A stretch of 8,430 nt of DNA from a virus (lineage: Duplodnaviria; Heunggongvirae; Uroviricota; Caudoviricetes): positions 1 through 8,430 of the IMG/VR virus record IMGVR_UViG_2778260991_000010. One strand, 5' to 3'. Both the position numbers and the translations under genes were made by a program. The notes beneath the pieces are model-generated. The model was not told the origin of the DNA. It was given only the letters and a program-made list of their open reading frames with translations, and made no database searches. Below, one piece after another: positions 1 to 8,430 of the stretch. The first letter of the stretch is position 1; each line of letters starts with the position of its first letter.

Positions 1-915
1 AAATCCGTTTTCACGTTCCCACTGCTCACGTGCTGCCCGAATTTCCTGAACTGCCCGTGATGCGGTGCCACCTGGCGCTGCTGCATGTCTCACCCCCTTG
101 CTGACTGGTTTAACCTGCGCCCTGACGTGATTTACGTGACGGGCGAATTTCTGCTCCCACTGAACCTGGCTAAACACTTTGCCATCATCACTCCAGTAAT
201 CCCGGAATGCGGCAAGTTCAGCAGGTGTAAATTCTGGTTCCGGCAAAGCCATCCCCCACAACGCAGCCCGTCGTCGAAAATCCTGTGACGGATGCCAGTC
301 ATCGGTCATCGGAAATTTTCCAATGGGCTCGCTCAGGCCATCCAGGAATACAGGGGGCGCAGCCTGTAACGACAAAACTTCCTGCTCACTGGTCGGAGCA
401 CTCTCGCGTGCGTTATGTGTGGGGTTTAGATCTTTGGGTTCCTTTGGGTTCCGTGATCCGTTTTTGGGTGTCTTTGATGGAAAATTTGGGTGTCTTTGGT
501 TATTTTCCATGCAGCAAAGAGTTCCGTTTTTGGGGCTGTTTTGTGCTGAAACATAACCGTTTTCGGTACTGTTTTTATTAACAGTACCAATTTCACCCAC
601 CTTTAAAGACTCCCGTTTTTGGGTGTATTCAGGCTCGGCAACACTTTCTTCTACACCGATAAGTCGGTACACCACAATTTGCTTTGTTCTGCCTTTTCTC
701 TCACCGGTATCAACAATTAACCCAATCTCCATCAGGTGTCGTAAGCTGTCCTGCACAGTCTTTTTGTTCAGTTCCGTTACTTCTGCCAGTGCAGATACAG
801 ACGGGTATGCACACAAATCGGCACCGCACATATCAGCAAGCCAGGTCAATACTGACTTACTGGATGAACTGCCGGTTTTCACCTTTTTAGCCCATCGTAG
901 TGCATCGATACTCAT
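1..915 (-). CDS. Phage replication initiation protein, 5' part only (N-terminal winged-helix-like domain, iteron-encoded linker, DnaT-like C-terminal region); C-terminus lies beyond the window start
   Basis: Minus-strand frame is open for all 305 codons from the ATG at 913-915 to the window edge; with no stop in the window it is absent from the ORF track. Hand translation begins MSIDALRWAKKVKTGSSSSKSVLTWLADMCGADLCAYPSVSALAEV...GRTKQIVVYRLIG, then a low-complexity linker, then ...FRDYWSDDGKVFSQVQWEQKFARHVNHVRAQ. Start codon is uncertain because the frame stays open upstream of 915. Plus-strand ORFs listed here (85..288, 285..581, 623..1087) look like antisense shadows. Confidence 0.6.
   Translation of the reverse strand, partial: MSIDALRWAKKVKTGSSSSKSVLTWLADMCGADLCAYPSVSALAEVTELNKKTVQDSLRHLMEIGLIVDTGERKGRTKQIVVYRLIGVEESVAEPEYTQKRESLKVGEIGTVNKNSTENGYVSAQNSPKNGTLCCMENNQRHPNFPSKTPKNGSRNPKEPKDLNPTHNARESAPTSEQEVLSLQAAPPVFLDGLSEPIGKFPMTDDWHPSQDFRRRAALWGMALPEPEFTPAELAAFRDYWSDDGKVFSQVQWEQKFARHVNHVRAQVKPVSKGVRHAAAPGGTASRAVQEIRAAREQWERENGF
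431..630. repeat. Iteron array plus AT-rich inverted repeat; putative replication origin inside the replication gene
   Basis: Tandem TTTGGGTTCC at 433-442 and 443-452. CCGTTTTTGGGTGT at 458-471 and 613-626, with variants at 524-537 (CCGTTTTTGGGGCT) and 557-570 (CCGTTTTCGGTACT), and TTTGGGTGTCTTTG at 463-476 and 485-498. Perfect 9-bp inverted repeat GGTACTGTT (565-573) / AACAGTACC (580-588) around the spacer TTTATT. Same layout as the lambda origin inside gene O. Confidence 0.55.
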
Positions 916-1438
916 ACGAACCCCTGGCAGACATTTGTTTATCTGCAAAGTAATATTGGTATTGCTGACGATACGCGTGCTTGAAAGCAATAGCTTTTTC
1001 TATAAGCTCGTCAGTCTCACGTTCCACAACAGCTGGATCCGCAAAAAGCAGCCCGGACTCCACCACATCGCCATATTCTTTGTTTAACCCGGCGATCATG
1101 TACGTAATGCTTTTTCCGTCAGTAATTTCACAATACAACCTGAAATCGCTGATCCGGATAGCCTCCATAATTGCCGGAATCAGCGCCGTGAATTTTTCCC
1201 GCTTATCCCTGGTGTCGATAGCTTTCCAGCGTTCGAATATCTTCACCCGGTTAACGCCCAGCACCCGTTGATCAACCGCTCCATCATCAAACGTGACGCG
1301 TTGAACATCGATGTTCGGGCGTTCTTTCAGTGCCCAGAATGCTTCCGTGATTAATATCGTCGCCTGCTCCTGTGTCATTCCTGGTCGGCATACCCAGGTA
1401 TCCAGAGCCTCACAAACCTGTTCAGGGGTGATTTTCAT
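887..1438 (-). CDS. YdaT-like prophage protein (183 aa), downstream of the cro-like gene
   Basis: ORF-track entry with ATG at 1436-1438. Its start overlaps the last codons of the upstream cro-like gene by 17 nt, and its stop (887-889) overlaps the replication gene start. The segment KIFERWKAIDTRDKREKFTALIPAIMEAI resembles what I recall of Rac YdaT, and the position matches the ydaS-ydaT-replication layout. Family assignment is from memory, not a search. Confidence 0.5.
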   Translation of the reverse strand: MKITPEQVCEALDTWVCRPGMTQEQATILITEAFWALKERPNIDVQRVTFDDGAVDQRVLGVNRVKIFERWKAIDTRDKREKFTALIPAIMEAIRISDFRLYCEITDGKSITYMIAGLNKEYGDVVESGLLFADPAVVERETDELIEKAIAFKHAYRQQYQYYFADKQMSARGSYEYRCTTMG

Positions 1439-1649
1439 TGTTCAACCGCCCCGCCCGCTTTGCCTTACGATATTCGTCATAAACTTTGGGGTCGTACTGA
1501 AGTTCCCCGCCGGATGCCTCTTGCAGGCGCATCGCGCGACCTTCAGGAACCAGTTCCCCCCATTGAGAAACAGCAGATGGATCAACACCAGCAGCTTTCG
1601 CTACTTTGGCTTTCGTCCCATAAAAATTAATTGCGTCTGATTTAAACAT
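1422..1649 (-). CDS. dicC: Cro-like helix-turn-helix regulator, DicC/YdaS family
   Basis: The ORF-track entry 1422..1661 begins at a TTG. The likely true start is the ATG at 1647-1649 (MFKSDAINFYGTKAKVAKAAGV...), directly preceded on the minus strand by GGAGGGGG. About 75 aa, divergent from the repressor gene; the C-terminal half matches my recollection of DicC. Confidence 0.75.
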   Translation of the reverse strand: MFKSDAINFYGTKAKVAKAAGVDPSAVSQWGELVPEGRAMRLQEASGGELQYDPKVYDEYRKAKRAGRLNNENHP

Positions 1650-1663
1650 CACCCCCTCCAAAG

Positions 1664-1677
1664 TTGAGTTTTCTCAA
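1664..1677. promoter_or_regulatory. Operator-like palindrome TTGAGTTTTCTCAA in the divergent dicC/dicA control region
   Basis: TGAG-N4-CTCA inverted repeat between the start codons of the divergent regulators (1649 and 1728). The same 13-mer recurs at 2197-2209. Confidence 0.45.
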
Positions 1678-1727
1678 TAGTAATCACTCAAGGAATCTCA
1701 AGTCAAGGGTTATTAAGATATCTAAAT

Positions 1728-2135
1728 ATGAACGATAAAACTTTAGGTCAACGAATTAGAGAAAGACGCAAACAGGTTGGTTTAAGTCAAAACGATTTAA
1801 GCAAAGCCGCTGGCGTATCTGGCTCATCAATTTCACTATGGGAAAGCGACCATACAGCCCCGCGCGGGCAAAATTTGCATCGCCTGGCTGAGGTATTGCA
1901 ATGTTCACCAACTTGGATACTGTTTGGTGACGAGGATAAAACACCAGATCCACCAGTTGCACTCAACAGCGCCTTAGACTTATCGGAAGATGAGTTGGAG
2001 ATGTTGCGATTGTATCGCGCACTTCCAAAATCAGAGCAGCAAGCACAAATCAGCGAACTCCGTGCCCGCGTTGAGAATTTTAATCGCCTATTCACCGAGC
2101 TACTAGAAGCTCGCAAACGTAACAAACATCAGTAA
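1728..2135 (+). CDS. dicA: XRE-family helix-turn-helix immunity repressor, DicA-like
   Basis: 135-aa ORF. N-terminal HTH (QRIRERRKQVGLSQNDLSKAAGVSGSSISLWE) and the motif LQCSPTWILFGDEDK followed by a C-terminal helix, matching what I recall of E. coli DicA (also 135 aa). Divergent from the cro-like gene. Confidence 0.85.
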   Translation: MNDKTLGQRIRERRKQVGLSQNDLSKAAGVSGSSISLWESDHTAPRGQNLHRLAEVLQCSPTWILFGDEDKTPDPPVALNSALDLSEDELEMLRLYRALPKSEQQAQISELRARVENFNRLFTELLEARKRNKHQ

Positions 2136-2196
2136 CCCCCTTCACAAATTTTAAAGCCTTACATTTCAATGTATTGGCTTTATTTTGCATTAAATA

Positions 2197-2248
2197 TTGA
2201 GTTTTCTCATTAAAAACACTTGACCAGCTTTCATGAGAAAACTAAATT
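2197..2248 (+). promoter_or_regulatory. Putative dicB-operon promoter (TTGACC-N17-TAAATT) flanked and overlapped by two operator copies
   Basis: -35 TTGACC at 2220-2225, 17-bp spacer, -10 TAAATT at 2243-2248. Operator copy TTGAGTTTTCTCA at 2197-2209, and an inverted degenerate copy TGAGAAAACTA at 2234-2244 overlapping the spacer and -10. Consistent with repressor control of the dicB operon. Confidence 0.45.
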
Positions 2249-2324
2249 ACCACCCATCAAGACACCGCACGGTGTTCTCAGCAAACAGTTCCGCTACCCG
2301 GCGTTAAGGGGAAATGAGGTCAAC

Positions 2325-2480
2325 ATGGATACTATCGATCTTGGTAACAACGAATCTCTGGTATACGGCGTGTTTCCCAACCAGGACGGCACGTTCACCG
2401 CGATGACGTATACCAAAAGCAAAACGTTTAAAACCGAATCTGGCGCGCGTCGCTGGCTGGAAAGAAACTCAGGTGAGTGA
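2325..2480 (+). CDS. ydfA: YdfA-like small protein (51 aa)
   Basis: Internal ATG at 2325 preceded by GAGGT (2316-2320). Product MDTIDLGNNESLVYGVFPNQDGTFTAMTYTKSKTFKTESGARRWLERNSGE. First gene after the repressor, as in the Qin dicB operon. The longer ORF-track entry from 2220 starts at a TTG inside the promoter region. Confidence 0.6.
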   Translation: MDTIDLGNNESLVYGVFPNQDGTFTAMTYTKSKTFKTESGARRWLERNSGE

Positions 2481-2481
2481 T

Positions 2482-2610
2482 ATGGATTTCGACACAATCA
2501 TGGAAAAGGCTTACTAAGAATACTTCGAAGGCCTTGCCGAAGGCGAAGAAGCTCTCAGCTTCAGCGAATTTAAACAGGCGCTTTCCAGTTCGGCAAAATC
2601 TAACGACTGA
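2482..2610 (+). pseudogene. ydfB: ydfB-like ORF (42 codons) interrupted by an in-frame TAA at codon 12 (2515-2517)
   Basis: ATG at 2482, two nt after the ydfA stop. Reads MDFDTIMEKAY, then TAA, then the same frame continues EYFEGLAEGEEALSFSEFKQALSSSAKSND to TGA at 2608-2610. Total length and spacing to neighbours fit the 42-codon ydfB position. Confidence 0.45.
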
Positions 2611-2639
2611 TAAGCGAAACAGCACCGCGAGGAATCAGT

Positions 2640-2858
2640 ATGCAGAAACGAGAACCCGTCATCATCGCGCCAGACTATACCGATGATGAACTTTATGAGT
2701 GGATGCGCCAGAAAATTAATGCAGCGCAGGATCTGAAATGGGTCAATGAAGCCAGGGCTAAGCAGGCTGAAAATCTGTCCGCTCTGGAGCAGGATATCAC
2801 CAATCTGGAAAAAGCAGCGGCATTAAGCATTGCCAGAATGATTACATACCCGCGTTAA
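2640..2858 (+). CDS. ydfC: YdfC-like small protein (72 aa)
   Basis: 72-aa ORF with AGGA 7 nt upstream of the ATG. Size and position (third ORF of the operon, 30 nt after ydfB) match ydfC. Confidence 0.6.
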   Translation: MQKREPVIIAPDYTDDELYEWMRQKINAAQDLKWVNEARAKQAENLSALEQDITNLEKAAALSIARMITYPR

Positions 2859-2880
2859 TAGCTAACCAACTAGGCTAATA

Positions 2881-3288
2881 ATGGAATTTAAAGATTTACC
2901 AAAAGAAATCCAGACAATTGCTGCAACGACTCTCGGTGATAGTCTGGTGAAAATTGACCCGGCATACACCAAAAAAGAAACCATCGATAATATGGTTCGT
3001 AATGTGCGCAATGCTTTTTCTGGGCTATATAGTTCTGATAATCAAAAGCAGGAAAGCGATGTTAATGAACGGGTAATTTCTGTTTGCGTGAATGGCCACG
3101 CTCTTTCATCAATCAAAACAGAAACAGCGACAGTCTTCGATTGCCTTTGCATTGTACAGAGCCTTGTTGATACCCTGTTTCGTTCAGTGAATTTAGAAAA
3201 TGATGCAAATCTGCGAGGGCGCACAATAGCACATCCATATGCACATACTTTAGGCTCTGTGGATATCAAAGATCCCACAAATCTTTAA
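2881..3288 (+). CDS. Hypothetical protein (135 aa) in the AT-rich insert, co-oriented with the dicB operon
   Basis: ATG-to-TAA ORF of 135 codons in DNA of about 38-40% GC, where stop codons are frequent and long ORFs are unlikely by chance. Protein-like composition. Only a weak ribosome-binding site (AGG). Starts 22 nt after the ydfC stop. No family recognised. Confidence 0.5.
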   Translation: MEFKDLPKEIQTIAATTLGDSLVKIDPAYTKKETIDNMVRNVRNAFSGLYSSDNQKQESDVNERVISVCVNGHALSSIKTETATVFDCLCIVQSLVDTLFRSVNLENDANLRGRTIAHPYAHTLGSVDIKDPTNL

Positions 3289-3499
3289 TGAAATAGTTAA
3301 TGCGAATTGTACTTGCTCTTTCAGTTTCTTTCAGAATACGCGTTGAAACTGCTGGCGGTAATTTGGTATTCCATTTATTAAAATCATGCCCGGGAAAGTA
3401 CTCTTCGAAAATACTTTTAACTGCAGACTCGCCTATTGAAATGCTGCTTACCATGCGATTTTGATAAAGGCATTTAGCAATAAGAGTTGATTTTAACAT
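3266..3499 (-). CDS. Hypothetical protein (77 aa) in the AT-rich insert, antisense to the dicB operon
   Basis: ATG at 3497-3499 (minus) preceded by AGGAGG with a 4-nt spacer (reverse complement of 3501-3510). 77 codons, stop at 3266-3268. The 3' end overlaps the 3' end of the 135-aa ORF by 23 bp. No family recognised. Confidence 0.5.
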   Translation of the reverse strand: MLKSTLIAKCLYQNRMVSSISIGESAVKSIFEEYFPGHDFNKWNTKLPPAVSTRILKETERASTIRINYFIKDLWDL

Positions 3500-3503
3500 T
3501 CAC

Positions 3504-3829
3504 CCTCCTGAGGGTTGGTAATTAAGGAGTTATCCACGGGTGAGGTGGAGTGCGTGCGCCGGACACGGGTGAACATCCGGCACTGACAGTTTACTGAAAG
3601 GATATATCCCTGAAAAGTCAGGGCATAACACGAAAGTGCACGGCGAAGTCCTTCTCCCTTAGAGCCGTCGTTAAATTTAATTCGACCGTGCGCTTCCGGT
3701 TGTGGCAATCCGCGAAATGGCGCGGCGGTAAGTATGGCGGGGTTATTCTTTCCCCGTTGAGGACACCGGGTTGTCAGGTTGACCATACGCTTAAGTGACA
3801 ACCCCGCTGCAACGCCCTCTGTTATCAAT
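3504..3829 (+). other. GC-rich, hairpin-dense untranslated spacer upstream of DicF
   Basis: About 55-58% GC with no credible ORF. Stem-loops: GCCGGA/TCCGGC (3558-3581), CCCTGA-AAAG-TCAGGG (3608-3623), CCGCG/CGCGG (around 3700-3716), CGGGG/CCCCG (around 3738-3756), and a 9-bp stem GGGTTGTCA/TGACAACCC (3768-3776 / 3796-3804). Direct repeat CACGGGTGA at 3536-3544 and 3564-3572. Confidence 0.4.
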
Positions 3830-3882
3830 ATTCTGGTGACATTTGGCGGTATCAGTTTTACTCCGTGACTGCTCTGCCGCCC
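3830..3882 (+). ncRNA. dicF: DicF small regulatory RNA (about 53 nt)
   Basis: Sequence AUUCUGGUGACAUUUGGCGGUAUCAGUUUUACUCCGUGACUGCUCUGCCGCCC closely matches the DicF sequence as I recall it (two possible differences near the 5' end). It sits 186 nt upstream of the dicB start and ends in a stem plus T-run. Confidence 0.7.
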
Positions 3883-3888
3883 TTTTTT
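3845..3888 (+). terminator. Intrinsic terminator forming the DicF 3' end
   Basis: GGCGG (3845-3849) pairs with CCGCC (3877-3881), followed by TTTTTT at 3883-3888. Confidence 0.5.
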
Positions 3889-4067
3889 AAAAGTGAATTT
3901 TGTGATGCGGTGAATGCGGCTCAGCGCACGCGGAACAGTTAAATCGGTAAAGCGGTCATTTGCTGAGTAACGGGAATGCTCTGTATCCGGCGTTAATTGT
4001 TAACTGGTTAACGTCACCTGGAGGCACCAGGCACTGCATCACAAAATTCATTGTTGAGGACGCGATA

Positions 4068-4256
4068 ATGGAAAAGTTATCATACAATGCCAGTACGTCT
4101 GAACTTCGTTTCGAAATTGGCGTTATCACTGGAGACAAAACATTTATTGAAGACGCCATTAAGCAGAGAAAACTCGAGCAGGACCTGTTAAATGAAGTAT
4201 GCATTCCTTCAATGCTGGCTCGTCTGGACCTGCTGCAAAAAGGATATAAACAATGA
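4068..4256 (+). CDS. dicB: DicB-like cell-division inhibitor (62 aa)
   Basis: ATG at 4068 preceded by GAGGA. The 62-aa product contains FEIGV, EDAI and SMLARL motifs as in DicB as I recall it. Stop overlaps the ydfD start (ATGA). Confidence 0.75.
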   Translation: MEKLSYNASTSELRFEIGVITGDKTFIEDAIKQRKLEQDLLNEVCIPSMLARLDLLQKGYKQ

Positions 4257-4444
4257 AAACAACATTTGCACTCGTTCTGACAGTTTATCTTGTTTCCGGC
4301 GAATCTCTTGAGATGGTGACTGGCTTATACGGTTCAATGAAAGAATGCATGGCTGCAGCAGCAGAACAAAAAATTCCCGGTAACTGTTATCCGGTAGATA
4401 AAGCTACTCACACTAATAATAACGAAATACCGGCGGGACTTTAA
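4253..4444 (+). CDS. ydfD: YdfD-like small protein (63 aa) with hydrophobic N-terminal segment
   Basis: 63-aa ORF translationally coupled to dicB. N-terminus TTFALVLTVYLV is hydrophobic. Size and position match ydfD. Confidence 0.6.
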   Translation: MKTTFALVLTVYLVSGESLEMVTGLYGSMKECMAAAAEQKIPGNCYPVDKATHTNNNEIPAGL

Positions 4445-4537
4445 AACAGCACCGAAATAAACATCCGGTTTCATTTTTATATGCCAGCAATGGCAGGGAT
4501 TTGTTCACCCTTAAATCTGTAATGAGGTTAAAACAAA

Positions 4538-7009
4538 ATGAATAAAGTCTTTATTTGTGCAGCTATTCCAGACGAACGGGCAATAAAGGAAGAAGGTGCA
4601 GTCGCTGTGGCCACTGCCATTGAAGCCGGTGACGAGCGCCGCGCCCGAGCCAAATTTACCTGGCAATTCCTGGAGCAATATCCGGCTGCTCAGGACTGCG
4701 CTTATAAATTTCTTGTCTGTGAGGATAAACCCGGCATGCCCCGCCCTGCCATTGACTCCTGGGATACCGAATATATGCAGGAAAACCGCTGGGATGAGGA
4801 ATGCGCTTCCTTTGCTCCGGTCGAACCAGAATCCGATCCGATGAACGTCAATTTTGACAAGCTGTCCCCTGAAGTACAGAACGCGGTCCTGGTTAAGTTC
4901 GGTACATGTGAAAACATCACCGTTGATATGGTGATTAGCGCGCAGGAATTGTTGCAGGAAGACATAGCAACATTCGACGGACATATCGTTGAAGCGTTGA
5001 TGAAAATGCCAGAAGTTAACGCCATGTATCCGGAGCTTAAGCTGCATACCATCGGGTGGGTTAAGCATAAATGTAAGCCTGGTGCCAAATGGCCCGAAAT
5101 TCAGGCAGAGATGCGCATCTGGAAAAAACGTCGCGAAGGTGAACGCAAGGAAACCGGGAAATACACGTCTGTTGTTGATCTCGCCCGCGCCAGAGCCAAT
5201 CAACAGAACACTGAAAATTCAACAGGAAAAATCAACCCGGTCATTGCTGCCACTCATCGCGAATACAAGCAGACATGGAAAACACTGGATGACGAACTGG
5301 CCTACGCTCTCTGGCCTGGTGACATTGATGCCGGAAACATTGACGGCAGCATCCATCGCTGGGCAAAAAATGAAGTTATCGACAACGACCGCGAAGACTG
5401 GAAGCGTATCTCGGCATCAATGCGCAAACAGCCTGATGCCCTTCGCTACGACTGCCAGACTATTTTTGGCCTTGTCCGTGAACGTCCGATCGACATTCAC
5501 AAAGACCCTGTAGCACTGAACAAATACATTACTGAATACCTGACTACAAAGGGCGTGTTTGAAGATGAAGGAAGAAATCAGAGCGCAACTGATACTCTCT
5601 CGTCGCCAGTACCAGAAACTGATGCAGTGGAAACGGCAATTCCGGACAACGAAAAAACCGAATGCAAAGTGGAAGTCGAACCATCTGTAGAGCGTGAGGG
5701 GCCGTTCTACTTCCTCTTCACCGACAAGGATGGCGAAAAATACGGTCGCGCAAACAAACTTTCTGGTCTGAATAAGGCGCTGACTGCAGGGGCTACTGAA
5801 ATCACGAAAGAAGAATATTTTGCCCGCAAAAACGGTACATACTCAGGTTCACAACAAAATACTGGTGCATCTGACACGACCGCACAACCAGAGCCGGTAA
5901 AAGTTACCGCTGACGAAGTAAACAAAATTATGCAGGCAGCCAATATCAGCCAGCCTGACGCCGATAAGTTGCTTGCTGCCTCTCGCGGAGAATTTGTTGC
6001 AGGGATTAGCGACCCGAATGATCCGAAATGGGTGAAGGGGATTGAAACCCGCGACTCTGTAAACCAGAACCAGCAAGAATCGGAACAGAACGACCAGAAA
6101 ACGGAACAAAACAGCCCAAATGCGTTACAAAACGAGCCAGAAACGAAACAGGTTGAACCAGTAGCGCAACAGGAGCCGGAAAAAGCCTGCACCGCCTGCG
6201 GTCAGACCGGCGGCAGTAGCTGCCCTGATTGTGGTGCGGTGATGGGTGACGCAACATACCAGGAAATATTCGATGAAGAGCATCAGCCTGAAGTTCAGGA
6301 AAATGATCCGGAGGAAATGGAAGGCACTGCGCATCAGCACAAGGAGAACACTGGCGGCAATCAGCATCATGCCAGCGATAGTGAAACTGGCGAGGCATCA
6401 GATCCCTTAATTAAGGCGAACGGTCATCATAATCTCACATCCACCAGCAGAGCGGAGATTCATCTGATGATCGACCTTGAAACCATGGGAAAAAATCCCG
6501 ATGCCCCGATTATCTCAATAGGCGCAATATTTTTCGATCCACAAACCGGAGATATGGGACCGGAATTTAGCAAGACCATCGATCTGGATACTGCTGGCGG
6601 AGTCATTGATCGTGACGTCATTAAATGGTGGCTTAAGCAATCACGCGAAGCGCAATCTGCCATTATGACCGATGAAATCCCGTTAGATGATGCACTGTTA
6701 CAATTGCGGGAATTTATCGACGAAAACTCCGGTGAATTTTTTGTTCAGGTCTGGGGAAATGGAGCCAACTTCGACAACACGATTTTGCGCCGTTCATACG
6801 AACGGCAGGGGATCCCCTGCCCGTGGCGTTACTACAACGATCGCGATGTACGCACAATCGTTGAGCTGGGGAAAGCCATAGACTTCGATGCCAGAACGGC
6901 TATTCCATTCGAAGGTGAGCGCCATAATGCACTTGATGACGCCCGTTACCAGGCAAAATACGTTTCAGCAATCTGGCAAAAACTGATCCCGAATCAGGCT
7001 GATTTTTAA
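4538..7009 (+). CDS. Large prophage exonuclease (823 aa): N-terminal exodeoxyribonuclease VIII-like region, acidic Q/E/N-rich linker with a CxxC-x7-CxxC zinc ribbon, C-terminal DEDDh 3'-5' exonuclease domain
   Basis: ATG at 4538 preceded by GAGGT. C-terminal motifs IDLETMG, WGNGANFDNTIL and HNALDDARYQAKY are typical of DnaQ-like DEDDh exonucleases. Zinc ribbon CTACGQTGGSSCPDC is encoded at 6188-6232. Sits where recE/ydfE-like genes lie in Rac/Qin-type prophages. Internal minus-strand ORFs (4511..5203 and others) are antisense shadows. Confidence 0.7.
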   Translation: MNKVFICAAIPDERAIKEEGAVAVATAIEAGDERRARAKFTWQFLEQYPAAQDCAYKFLVCEDKPGMPRPAIDSWDTEYMQENRWDEECASFAPVEPESDPMNVNFDKLSPEVQNAVLVKFGTCENITVDMVISAQELLQEDIATFDGHIVEALMKMPEVNAMYPELKLHTIGWVKHKCKPGAKWPEIQAEMRIWKKRREGERKETGKYTSVVDLARARANQQNTENSTGKINPVIAATHREYKQTWKTLDDELAYALWPGDIDAGNIDGSIHRWAKNEVIDNDREDWKRISASMRKQPDALRYDCQTIFGLVRERPIDIHKDPVALNKYITEYLTTKGVFEDEGRNQSATDTLSSPVPETDAVETAIPDNEKTECKVEVEPSVEREGPFYFLFTDKDGEKYGRANKLSGLNKALTAGATEITKEEYFARKNGTYSGSQQNTGASDTTAQPEPVKVTADEVNKIMQAANISQPDADKLLAASRGEFVAGISDPNDPKWVKGIETRDSVNQNQQESEQNDQKTEQNSPNALQNEPETKQVEPVAQQEPEKACTACGQTGGSSCPDCGAVMGDATYQEIFDEEHQPEVQENDPEEMEGTAHQHKENTGGNQHHASDSETGEASDPLIKANGHHNLTSTSRAEIHLMIDLETMGKNPDAPIISIGAIFFDPQTGDMGPEFSKTIDLDTAGGVIDRDVIKWWLKQSREAQSAIMTDEIPLDDALLQLREFIDENSGEFFVQVWGNGANFDNTILRRSYERQGIPCPWRYYNDRDVRTIVELGKAIDFDARTAIPFEGERHNALDDARYQAKYVSAIWQKLIPNQADF

Positions 7010-7020
7010 TGTTCAACCCC

Positions 7021-7053
7021 GGTCGTCGCCCACCAGCTATAGTGGCGGCGACC
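7021..7053 (+). other. Stem-loop (10-bp stem including one G-U) between the exonuclease gene and xis
   Basis: GGTCGTCGCC (7021-7030) pairs with GGCGGCGACC (7044-7053) across a 13-nt loop. No downstream T-run, so not a canonical intrinsic terminator. Confidence 0.35.
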
Positions 7054-7073
7054 ATGATTAGCGAACGACGCTC

Positions 7074-7322
7074 ATGGCAAGACTTATTCTGCTCACTGAG
7101 TGGGCAAAAGAGGAATTCAGCGATCCGGTCCCTACTCCGGGCACGTTAAGTAAATACGCTAAAGCCGGAATGATATTTCCTCTCCCCAAAAAAGTTGGAA
7201 GACACTGGCGAGTGGATCCGCGAGCTCGCTTTGTCGGAATGGTAAACAAGCCGGAGGTGATCGCCACAGATCACCCTGCTTTGAAGAGGATACTGGAAGA
7301 TGGCGCGCCCGCGAAAATATAA
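7074..7322 (+). CDS. xis: Excisionase (lambda Xis-like)
   Basis: 82-aa ORF immediately upstream of int, overlapping it by 23 nt, as with lambda xis-int. Small basic DNA-binding-like protein (EWAKEEF...FPLPKKVGRHWRV). Weak ribosome-binding site, so the start is uncertain. Confidence 0.65.
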   Translation: MARLILLTEWAKEEFSDPVPTPGTLSKYAKAGMIFPLPKKVGRHWRVDPRARFVGMVNKPEVIATDHPALKRILEDGAPAKI

Positions 7323-8430
7323 AACCAATGTTCCGGGATTATCTCCGTATTTTGACAAAAGAAATAACAAAGTTTACTGGCGTTACAGGCATCCCATAAC
7401 AGGCAAAAATCACGGTCTCGGCAGTATTGACCAGAAACTGGCAGAAACTATTGCAGCAGAAGCGAACAGCCGTCTTGCCAGGCAGCAAATGGAACAAATG
7501 CTCAGTCTGCAGGAGAAAATTATTAATGATACCGGCGGTTCATCAACCGTTTCCATTTTTCTGAATAATTACAGAAAAATTCAACAGGAAAGATATGAAA
7601 ACGGAGAAATCAAACTCAACACGCTGAAACAGAAAGCGGCCCCTCTCAGGGTTTTTGATGAACGTTTTGGCACCAGACCGTTAGATGCCATAACCGTAAA
7701 GGATGTGGTATCGGTGCTGGAAGAGTACAAGTCCAGAGGACATAACAGAATGGGACAAATTTTCAGGAAGGTACTGATCGATGTTTTCCGGGAAGCTCAG
7801 CAAACGGGCGATGTCCCGCCAGGCTTTAACCCTGCAGAATCGGCAAAAAAACCACAGGTGCGGATATCAAGACAGCGACTAACTTTTGATGAGTGGACGA
7901 TGATTTATAACGCAGCGGAAAAGGATGGTTACTTTTTACAGCGCGGTATGCTGCTGGCACTGATGACAGGCCAGCGCCTTTCAGATATTTGCAAAATGCA
8001 ATTTTCGGATATCCGGGATGGTTATCTTCATGTCGAACAGCAAAAAACAGGAACCCGGATTGCCATCCCTCTGGCTCTGCGTTGCGATAAATTAAATCTC
8101 ACCCTGGATGATGTGGTGTCATCCTGTCGCGATTGCGTTCTTAGTCCGTGGCTATTGCACCATCATCACGCGAAAGGGACAGCTAAGCGCGGCGGGATGG
8201 TTAAGCCAGCAACGTTAACCGTTGCATTTAAAAAAGCGCGGGATTCTGTGGATTACAACTGGCGTGCTAATGGCACCCCACCCTCTTTCCATGAGCAGAG
8301 ATCTTTATCAGAGCGATTGTTCAGAGAGCAGGGAATTGATACCCAAATTTTGCTGGGTCATTCGAATCAAAAAATGACCGATATTTACAACGATGCACGC
8401 GGCAAGGAGTGGAAAAAACTGGTCATTTGA
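7300..8430 (+). CDS. int: Tyrosine-type site-specific integrase, lambda Int family
   Basis: 376-aa ORF with GAGGA upstream. Clear similarity to lambda Int from memory: YVEQQKTGTRIAIP, PPSFHEQRSLSERL, and the C-terminal LLGHSNQKMTDIYNDARGKEW carrying the catalytic His and Tyr. Stop codon is at the window end. Confidence 0.9.
   Translation: MARPRKYKTNVPGLSPYFDKRNNKVYWRYRHPITGKNHGLGSIDQKLAETIAAEANSRLARQQMEQMLSLQEKIINDTGGSSTVSIFLNNYRKIQQERYENGEIKLNTLKQKAAPLRVFDERFGTRPLDAITVKDVVSVLEEYKSRGHNRMGQIFRKVLIDVFREAQQTGDVPPGFNPAESAKKPQVRISRQRLTFDEWTMIYNAAEKDGYFLQRGMLLALMTGQRLSDICKMQFSDIRDGYLHVEQQKTGTRIAIPLALRCDKLNLTLDDVVSSCRDCVLSPWLLHHHHAKGTAKRGGMVKPATLTVAFKKARDSVDYNWRANGTPPSFHEQRSLSERLFREQGIDTQILLGHSNQKMTDIYNDARGKEWKKLVI

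Follow-up and report, generated by a model that had tools for sequence, protein, structure and literature searches.

In Staphylococcus aureus prophages, the Tha/Ith system combines a defence gene with a small, overlapping antisense inhibitor gene that has a constitutive promoter (Rostol et al. 2024, PMC11087260), and transcriptional interference between the two leads to mutually exclusive states (PMC11087260). The sieB gene is a prophage-expressed exclusion gene, and P22 escapes its own SieB by means of the Esc antidote and the sas antisense RNA (PMC12197685, PMC7067206). BstA, together with aba, provides defence with cognate self-immunity beside the prophage repressor (PMC8585504), and an orientation antisense to lytic genes is characteristic of accessory genes (PMC7067206). 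Here we describe two small convergent genes, designated ORF135 and ORF77 (open reading frames, ORFs, encoding proteins of 135 and 77 aa), which form a cassette between ydfC and the DicF small RNA (sRNA) gene in IMG/VR record IMGVR_UViG_2778260991_000010 (positions 1 to 8,430; this stretch of 8,430 nucleotides is hereafter the window). Both are genuine genes, linked to each other in a constant geometry, placed within the early-left operon of a Qin-like prophage and at a site that is polymorphic among Escherichia coli genomes. Their sequences were already in databases as hypothetical proteins and the design has the precedents just mentioned, whereas the protein families and folds are uncharacterised.

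As in Tha/Ith, a small gene is antisense to, and overlaps (here by 23 bp), a gene of a life-cycle-controlled prophage operon. Tha/Ith further has a promoter for its antisense gene and the inhibition of one product by the other, by which an accessory function is coupled to the switch between lysogeny and lysis. The polarity differs: there, tha is held by the lysogenic cI operon and the antisense gene is the inhibitor, whereas here the main operon is the repressed lytic early-left one and the antisense gene would be the product of the lysogenic state. The proteins are unrelated (no HEPN domain and no homology to Tha or Ith was detected in either), the host is Gram-negative, and the present locus is known from sequence alone.

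The likeness to sieB is positional: ORF77, too, is encoded against the early-left operon near the repressor. In the Rac prophage of K-12 (L185, NC_000913 1415500-1421500), racR, ydaG and ydaF (DUF1391), all read leftwards, are convergent with sieB, which is followed by the kilS sRNA and then by kilR; sieB and ydaF share 4 bp at their 3' ends. The order dicA..ORF135/ORF77/DicF/dicB is the gene-by-gene counterpart of this, with ydaF matching ydfA (DUF1391), the antisense sieB the ORF77 slot, the kilS sRNA DicF and the division inhibitor gene kilR dicB, and thus ORF77 stands in the sieB position. However, SieB is a membrane protein, whereas ORF77 is soluble, only 77 aa long and without SieB homology in Pfam and NCBIfam searches that included 88 family members; the P22 antidote is, moreover, an in-frame product of sieB itself and not of a convergent gene.

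BstA and RexAB differ from the pair in size and strand, both being large proteins whose genes share the strand of the repressor; aba is an element of DNA, and neither system has sequence similarity to the cassette. With lambdoid morons the cassette has in common its location between genes adjacent in relatives, low GC content, orientation against lytic genes and presence/absence polymorphism; unlike them, it has no demonstrable flanking promoter/terminator pair, one of its genes is part of the host operon and the site is multi-allelic. A constant N-terminal domain, a swappable C-terminal domain and then a small variant-specific gene recall polymorphic toxin/immunity loci. This is a resemblance only, as the small gene is convergent and not co-directional, and there is no secretion-associated or recognised toxin domain.

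A co-inherited pair of convergent genes

ORF77 and ORF135 are protein-coding genes under purifying selection. Each is the sole open frame in its own segment, and the ratio of non-synonymous to synonymous polymorphism (pN/pS) among E. coli variants is 0.36-0.37 for ORF77 and 0.48 for ORF135 (0.40 in its C-terminal domain and an elevated 0.75 in its N-terminal domain). ORF77 is basic (isoelectric point, pI, 9.2) and soluble, with an invariant N-terminus, MLKSTLIAKCL, and no hydrophobic span (maximal hydropathy over 19 aa, 0.59); AlphaFold2 predicted a compact five-helix protein (predicted local distance difference test score, pLDDT, 96.4). Homologues hold 77 aa at 52-71% identity in Klebsiella/Raoultella, Dickeya, Salmonella, Xenorhabdus, Morganella, Yersinia, Serratia, Proteus and Photorhabdus, and an exhaustive HMMER scan yielded 163 clusters at 50% identity, nearly all of them 74-80 aa in length. 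ORF135 is acidic (pI 5.3) and soluble, and its AlphaFold2 model (pLDDT 76) has two domains, a helical hairpin (residues 8-51) followed by a β-hairpin and two helices (65-111). Its profile matches, phrog_1363 (6e-46) and phrog_23433 (6.5e-10), are both families of unknown function. An earlier note on this DNA, made from the sequence without database searches, had called the two ORFs orphans, which they are not: both are annotated in RefSeq as hypothetical proteins, fall into PHROG families and have homologues across Enterobacterales.

The pairing was followed in 182 sources from genomes and IMG/VR. These include 173 loci with both genes; many are redundant, so that about 74 different module sequences and 32 different protein pairs are represented. 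A scan of genome contigs with a narrow alignment gave only 4 loci. ORF77 and its partner are convergent in all 173, with a 3' overlap of 23 bp in 160, of 26 bp in 9 and of 51 bp in 3, and a frameshifted ORF77 in one. Every distant ORF77 locus inspected likewise has an opposite-strand gene that ends within the 3' end of ORF77. Since the genes are always convergent and their 3' ends overlap, each transcript must run antisense into the other, and there is no room for a terminator between them. The divergences of partner and ORF77 are correlated (mirror-tree r = 0.57 over the 32 pairs, a value reached by none of 2000 Mantel permutations), as expected for a co-inherited unit, and judging from all these loci the two genes are inherited together across Enterobacterales.

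By the same comparisons, the conserved, ancestral core of the module consists of ORF77 and only the C-terminal ~75 aa of ORF135. Partners in other genera range from 77 to 191 aa (77-86 aa in the distant loci inspected) and are homologous to aa 60-135 of ORF135. This conserved partner domain (aa ~60-135, nt ~3058-3285, phrog_23433) contains the motif VNG..T.AVAADY...LE.EAN.SG.TI.H..F..GS, common to ORF135 and the distant partners. The N-terminal additions to it are variable: there may be none, a ClpX-type zinc finger (Citrobacter), a YdfC-like domain (Yersinia) or, in E. coli and Salmonella, the 'slot' domain MEFKDLPKEIQ..., which comprises aa 1-55 of ORF135 (nt 2881-3045). The Yersinia protein (L009 4212-4787, 191 aa) is a natural fusion of phrog_1744 with phrog_23433, which suggests a functional link of YdfC to the module. 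In Citrobacter (L012 3001-3420, 139 aa) the domain is fused to a C4 zinc finger (PF06689, 6e-9); the ORF77-like gene of this locus was missed by the gene caller, yet is present on the reverse strand. In two IMG/VR contigs (L165 2953-3582 and L168 2980-3513) the partner domain precedes, or is fused to, a phrog_21318 domain, and the convergent gene that replaces ORF77 is a 66-aa zinc-ribbon ORF (CxxC...CxxC), making a further cassette type on the partner domain. An 18-nt direct repeat of 83% identity links a segment of ORF135 (window 2939-2956, ATAGTCTGGTGAAAATTG) with the 5' end of DicF (3828-3845, ATATTCTGGTGACATTTG), probably by chance.

The two genes are not lost symmetrically. ORF77 is degraded beside an intact partner in three distinct modules (L022, L102 and L152), and the partner domain occurs without ORF77 in L159-162, L165 and L168. 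ORF77 without a partner was never seen in prophages and was found only outside them. This asymmetry of decay points, weakly, to a possible dependence of ORF77 on the partner. The non-prophage case, in a metagenome-assembled genome of Psychrosphaera sp. (L021 2989-3228), is a lone ORF77-family protein of 43% identity, without a partner-domain gene, situated between a chemoreceptor-like gene and a glycoside hydrolase; hence the ORF77 family is not strictly phage-bound.

Neither protein had a match in Pfam or NCBIfam, and 88 distant ORF77 relatives had none in Pfam. Sequence-profile searches of PDB with both proteins gave nothing, a fold search of BFVD returned only a member of the query's own family, and the fold searches showed no DNA-binding fold for either protein. 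Long relatives of ORF77 contained no informative domain fusions. In the sources, both genes are named 'hypothetical' throughout, apart from one implausible 'dGTP triphosphohydrolase', a stray label from a single public source (the O157-variant cluster). A dGTPase function was rejected for ORF77, which has 77 aa and no HD domain, and the label of this cluster is likely an annotation error. We found no description of ORF135 or ORF77 in the literature on dicBF and ydfC, where Fig. 9 of PMC5069750 merely draws non-conserved genes in white. The partner being the first pL gene outside E. coli, an N-like antiterminator was also considered for it; this was rejected in view of the lack of an arginine-rich motif, and also because half of the E. 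coli genomes hold the downstream element and DicF without any cassette.

The ydfC-dicF slot and its alleles

In the alignment with K-12 Qin the cassette is a clean insertion, exactly between ydfC, the last conserved operon gene 5' of the slot, and the conserved DicF leader, with flanks of ~95% identity. The left junction reads ...GGCTAA / TAATGGAA and the right one ...CCTCCTGA / GGGTTGGTAATTAAGGAG. The gap between ydfC and dicF is 340 bp in K-12, with no annotated gene, versus 972 bp here. The GC content of positions 2859-3510 is 0.388, compared with 0.476 for ydfA-ydfC, 0.528 for the spacer at 3511-3830 and 0.472 for the whole window; hardly any other 652-bp stretch in the 8.4-kb window is as poor in GC (minimum at 2855, rank 24 of 7779 sliding windows, ~3 standard deviations below the mean). 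In lying between genes adjacent in relatives, and in its GC content of 0.386 against 0.47-0.53 in the flanks, the cassette has the appearance of a moron.

The site is, however, a multi-allelic slot with at least five states, of which the cassette is one. Among 5,426 complete E. coli genomes, half (2,708) have the empty K-12 junction and 646-677 (~12%) the cassette of the window, including the O157:H7/O55:H7 ompW-site prophages; Evi, a phage available as an isolate, has this cassette too. In ~1,000 genomes the slot is filled by one of three further cassettes, all of which bring a small convergent gene of their own. In the first (~600 genomes) the forward gene encodes 208 aa (phrog_2151) and abuts a convergent gene of 69 aa; in the second (387 genomes) a forward gene of 179 aa overlaps by 20 bp a convergent zinc-ribbon-like gene of 80 aa; in the third (8 genomes) the forward gene, of 201 aa, consists of the partner domain and an extension, and the convergent gene (66 aa, phrog_2605) overlaps it by 23 bp. 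A 124-aa forward gene without a convergent gene also exists in the slot (L184). Deposited phage records are few, as only 12 have either gene.

All forward genes of the slot have their N-terminal ~55 aa in common, and one N-terminal domain is joined to at least five different C-terminal domains. A strong Shine-Dalgarno sequence for the convergent gene occurs at the same position in every alternative cassette, and the convergent genes of the other alleles are unrelated to ORF77 by hidden Markov model comparison. The O157 copies depart from the window in their first 95 bp only, an indication of recombination within the common N-terminal domain. Neither the K-12 alignment nor the comparison of junctions with other cassettes revealed a target-site duplication; because of this, exchange of cassettes by recombination in the conserved flanks looks more likely than transposition.

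These results bear on most of what the earlier note had said of the segment. It described AT-rich DNA with two ORFs, one of 135 aa on the operon strand and one of 77 aa opposite to it, overlapping by 23 bp at their 3' ends, in an interval free of annotation in K-12 Qin; the coordinates, the drop in GC and the unannotated K-12 gap are all as it had them, and the alignment to K-12 Qin that it proposed gave sharp insert boundaries and a presence/absence polymorphism. The return of GC to ~55-58% near 3505 was overestimated (we measured ~0.52-0.53 after this position). Its compact convergent module within the dicB operon, which is of the DicA-repressed dicBF type, agrees with the operators and promoter 5' of ydfA (see below), and its inserted cargo, or moron, is right insofar as there is an insertion relative to K-12 Qin, the site being more than a simple one-off insertion. 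Of the functions that it considered plausible (defence, anti-defence, exclusion or toxin-antitoxin-like), none was recovered by the database and fold searches; the architecture does fit arrangements for exclusion and self-immunity known from prophages.

Other accessory genes occur around the slot in related prophages. In a related E. coli prophage (L182 821-1488), the reverse strand carries a HigB-toxin/HTH antitoxin pair inserted between ydfC and the gene for the dicA-like repressor, another antisense accessory insertion in the same operon. In the allele with the 179-aa and 80-aa genes, which is common in O157:H7 and O103, a Rha/ASH-family (antirepressor-like) gene is located between the slot cassette and dicB (L183 3843-4697).

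Control of the early-left operon and the leader before DicF

The window covers the immunity and early-left region of a Qin-like lambdoid prophage and is 99.9% identical to E. coli O8:H28 BMH-17-0027. It starts with ydaT-like and cro-like genes on the minus strand, followed by the dicA-like repressor, ydfA, ydfB, ydfC and the two hypothetical genes of the cassette, 3' of which are dicB, a DUF1482 (ydfD-like) gene, an 823-aa exonuclease, xis and int. With DicF downstream, the order dicA-ydfA-ydfB-ydfC-dicF-dicB-ydfD and an operator-flanked promoter 5' of ydfA, this is an early-left operon of the dicBF type (Table 1). The ydfB gene (window 2482-2610), intact in K-12 (42 aa), is interrupted by an internal stop and annotated as a pseudogene in the RefSeq genome of 99.9% identity.

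Table 1 Positions of the cassette, its genes and the neighbouring operon features in the window
Feature	Position	Strand	Evidence and remarks
Early-left (dicBp/pL-type) promoter	2196..2248	+	TTGACC (2220-2225)-17-TAAATT (2243-2248), inside an inverted pair of operator half-sites
ydfC (phrog_1744)	2640..2858	+	RefSeq annotation of the 99.9% identical genome; PHROG match 1e-39
Cassette	2877..3510	.	634 bp, 38.6% GC; missing from K-12 Qin (pairwise alignment)
ORF135	2881..3288	+	phrog_1363; the RefSeq hypothetical proteins of the two ORFs are WP_096836091.1 and WP_096836093.1
Convergent 3' overlap	3266..3288	.	23 bp; + strand ends ...IKDPTNL (stop), - strand ends ...FIKDLWDL (stop)
ORF77	3266..3499	-	phrog_10348 (2.6e-46, unknown function); RefSeq hypothetical protein
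ORF77 Shine-Dalgarno sequence AGGAGG	3504..3509	-	Strong site; 4 nt 5' of ATG; last cassette element before the right junction
Conserved GC-rich leader, slot to DicF	3511..3830	+	Common to K-12; any ORF77 promoter must lie here, on the - strand
DicF sRNA	3831..3882	+	Rfam RF00039, 77 bits versus gathering score 48, E 3.8e-16
dicB (cell-division inhibitor)	4068..4256	+	RefSeq annotation mapped from the 99.9% identical genome, and ORF list
ydfD-like DUF1482 gene	4253-4444	+	Directly after dicB

A repeat search located operator half-sites at 2196-2214 and 2229-2247, an inverted pair around the early-left promoter 5' of ydfA. The half-site TTGAGTTTTCTCA is also present at 1664-1676, between the cro-like (dicC-like) and dicA-like genes, and no operator was found near ORF77 in the window. 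We assigned the promoter as repressor-controlled on account of these repeats and of the literature on K-12 dicBF (PMC5069750). ORF135 therefore lies inside a repressor-controlled early operon, and its product is expected only after derepression, that is, upon induction or infection. In the Klebsiella locus L010, oR has ACAG-N7-CTGT operators, and further copies surround a 10/12 promoter situated between the partner gene and that of the cI-like protein; the oR/oL inverted-repeat pair of Hafnia L017 follows the same logic. In every non-E. coli locus inspected, the partner gene comes directly after that of the cI-like repressor, as the first of a pL-type operon.

The first ~90 nt of the leader between slot and DicF align with an element 5' of the ORF77 ATG in other genera, most of whose loci have a conserved promoter-like site, TTCACC/TTTTCA-16..18-TGgTATC(T/C)T, ending ~31 nt 5' of this ATG. 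The element itself, which comprises the ~75 nt 5' of the ATG (L006-L176) and is located between the ORF77 start and the DicF-like RNA, reads ...TTCTTGG-N12-CCAAGAA-TACCACC-N-GCCTG-N-GTGGTG-AAAAGA-CAGGC-ACACAAC; the start of the E. coli spacer (window 3511-3600) aligns with it, GCCGGA..TCCGGC matching GCCTG..CAGGC. Besides including the promoter-like TGgTATCTT, it would allow several interleaved pairings, and a promoter, an operon-strand RNA and a recombination site are all candidates for its nature. RNAalifold on a MAFFT alignment found no structure in it, and single-sequence minimum-free-energy z-scores (~0 to -1.9) were not significant. A hairpin sequestering the Shine-Dalgarno sequence, as in a riboswitch-like ORF77 leader, was considered, since its pairing with an upstream arm recurs with different sequences; given the unsupportive RNAalifold and z-score results it is not claimed. 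The 21-nt -10/leader segment of the early promoter (2242-2262) is 81% complementary to the ORF77 Shine-Dalgarno/right junction segment (3506-3526), either as a long-range pairing of the operon transcript or by chance.

A DicF-like RNA follows the module in Klebsiella/Raoultella (L010 3874-3922, minus strand). It scores 29.9 bits with RF00039, below the gathering score of 48, and has a GGCGG...CCGCC terminator hairpin and a U-run. Similar hairpins (TGGCGG...CCGCCA with a T-run) are visible 3' of ORF77 on the operon strand in L013, L015, L164 and L091, in Citrobacter, Erwinia and others. The order partner, ORF77, DicF-like RNA is therefore not confined to E. coli, and the Rfam threshold probably captures only a part of the DicF family. 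Matches to the tRNA model occur just 3' of the module in the early regions of prophages of Hafnia (L017 3644-3724, plus strand, 45.6 bits) and Yersinia (L009 3497-3624, minus strand, 38.5 bits), the latter with an unusual length of 128 nt.

Possible roles of the pair

The model we find best supported, and which we favour tentatively, is a noncontiguous-operon switch akin to sieB or Tha/Ith but of inverted polarity, with a lysogen-expressed factor and an induction-expressed partner. From the analogy with these systems we infer the timing of ORF77, its interaction with the partner and the biological role of both. ORF77 would be transcribed from its own promoter while the early operon is silent, i.e., in the lysogen, against the direction of the downstream operon genes dicB and ydfD-like, and would serve as an effector of the lysogenic state, most plausibly an exclusion or abortive-type factor directed at incoming phages or lytic functions. 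Firing of the strong early promoter would then shut ORF77 down by convergent transcription and antisense RNA, and the partner domain of ORF135, made early after derepression (outside E. coli as the first protein of the operon), would bind and neutralise leftover ORF77. ORF135 would be the cognate early 'antidote' with which the prophage's own induction can proceed, and the allelic diversity of the slot may reflect phage-phage conflict. A wider and more doubtful proposal would extend this to a hitherto unrecognised class of 'convergent pair' cassettes in the ydfC-dicF slot and at the first pL position in prophages of other Enterobacterales: these would encode small lysogen-expressed effectors of new fold (ORF77 here, unrelated 66-80-aa proteins in the other alleles), active in exclusion of rival phages or abortive defence against them, and, in the overlapping forward genes, their cognate antidotes, wired by transcriptional collision as a Gram-negative, polarity-inverted counterpart of Tha/Ith, their diversity recording conflicts between phages.

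Several observations weigh against such a switch. The weakest link of the expression model is the missing convincing promoter for ORF77 in its E. coli form: no promoter of at least 9/12 and no convincing σ70 promoter is present 5' of ORF77 in the window, and the sole weak candidate, TTTTCA-17-TAAACT (~3581-3609, 8/12), ends 88 nt upstream, in sequence also present in K-12. The promoter-like site of the other genera, too, reaches only 8/12 of the consensus (with an extended -10), and could have been kept within the conserved element for another purpose, e.g., as operon-strand RNA. Co-inheritance and correlated divergence are expected from tight linkage alone, and the asymmetry of decay rests on three cases. 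Opposite charge of the two proteins in the window is not a general feature, because the mean net charge across the family is near neutral (+0.03 for ORF77 and -1.8 for the partner domain). Neither protein matched a defence, toxin, antitoxin or anti-defence family in Pfam, NCBIfam or PADLOC (no family of PADLOC-DB v2.0.0 for either at E <= 1), and both are very small for an abortive-infection effector.

The main rival holds that two unrelated accessory genes are merely packaged together in one small recombination cassette, their 3' overlap being due to compaction and not to any coupling. Lambdoid mosaicism does shift small blocks between conserved flanks, the slot accepts other cassettes, the partner domain also occurs with other convergent genes, an ORF77 homologue stands alone in Psychrosphaera, and the correlated divergence follows from linkage. 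Yet the two genes remain paired, convergent and overlapping from genus to genus, even at a partner identity of 35-45% and with changing N-terminal fusions, and no prophage ORF77 was found without a partner-domain gene, which leaves co-packaging as a possible, if somewhat unlikely, explanation. Less probable still is a lytic module for host takeover or counter-defence, with early effectors of the ORF135 type acting on defences of the host or of rival prophages and the convergent gene as modulator or timer. Genes for anti-restriction and anti-defence, for instance lambda Ral, typically lie early in the first transcript of lytic growth, and the joining of one N-terminal domain to at least five C-terminal ones, the allelic diversity suggestive of an arms race and the elevated pN/pS of the N-terminal domain would all suit this role. 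It would, however, leave unexplained why a gene to be co-expressed with the operon should lie on the opposite strand with an obligatory transcriptional collision, and searches of PADLOC, Pfam and PHROGs, to which this comparison is confined, gave no similarity to known anti-defence proteins.

It has also to be considered that transcription itself is the product, an antisense promoter or RNA of the slot insulating DicF and dicB, both toxic on expression (PMC5069750), from leaky read-through in the lysogen, with the ORF being secondary. Nearly every slot cassette brings a convergent gene, from unrelated families, and mutual interference of convergent promoters is known (PMC11087260). We regard this as improbable: the ORF77 protein is conserved across genera in its length of 77 aa, low pN/pS, invariant N-terminal helix and confident fold, while half of the E. 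coli genomes have dicF and dicB with an empty slot, and the forward gene of L184 lacks a convergent gene. A classical type II toxin-antitoxin addiction module stabilising the prophage would agree with two small, tightly linked proteins, with the opposite charges of the window pair and with the asymmetric decay, and a genuine HigB/HTH pair is inserted nearby in a related prophage; but the genes are convergent and not co-transcribed, one of them is under lytic-repressor control, and neither has a toxin or antitoxin family match or a DNA-binding fold, so that such a module is very improbable. That one or both ORFs are chance open frames is effectively refuted: the DNA is AT-rich, with fewer GC-rich stop-free frames, and no named family was matched, but against this stand a sole open frame per segment, purifying selection, cross-genus conservation and the high-confidence model of ORF77 (pLDDT 96).

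The cassette is common: about one in eight complete E. coli genomes carry it, among them those with the O157:H7 ompW-site prophage, and in pathogenic E. coli it is widespread. The operon in which it is located also produces the DicF sRNA and DicB, both with documented effects on host physiology, DicB also altering phage susceptibility. Should the switch between a lysogeny effector and a lytic antidote prove true, it would add two new protein folds to the defence and self-immunity repertoire of prophages and would carry the 'noncontiguous operon' logic, hitherto demonstrated in phages of S. aureus, over to lambdoid phages of enterobacteria; the slot, with at least five alleles and different small convergent genes, would then be a compact hotspot that can be mined systematically. 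Even if the function of the pair is mundane, the slot explains the recurrent length polymorphism of the dicBF leader, which matters for the processing of DicF in pathogenic strains.

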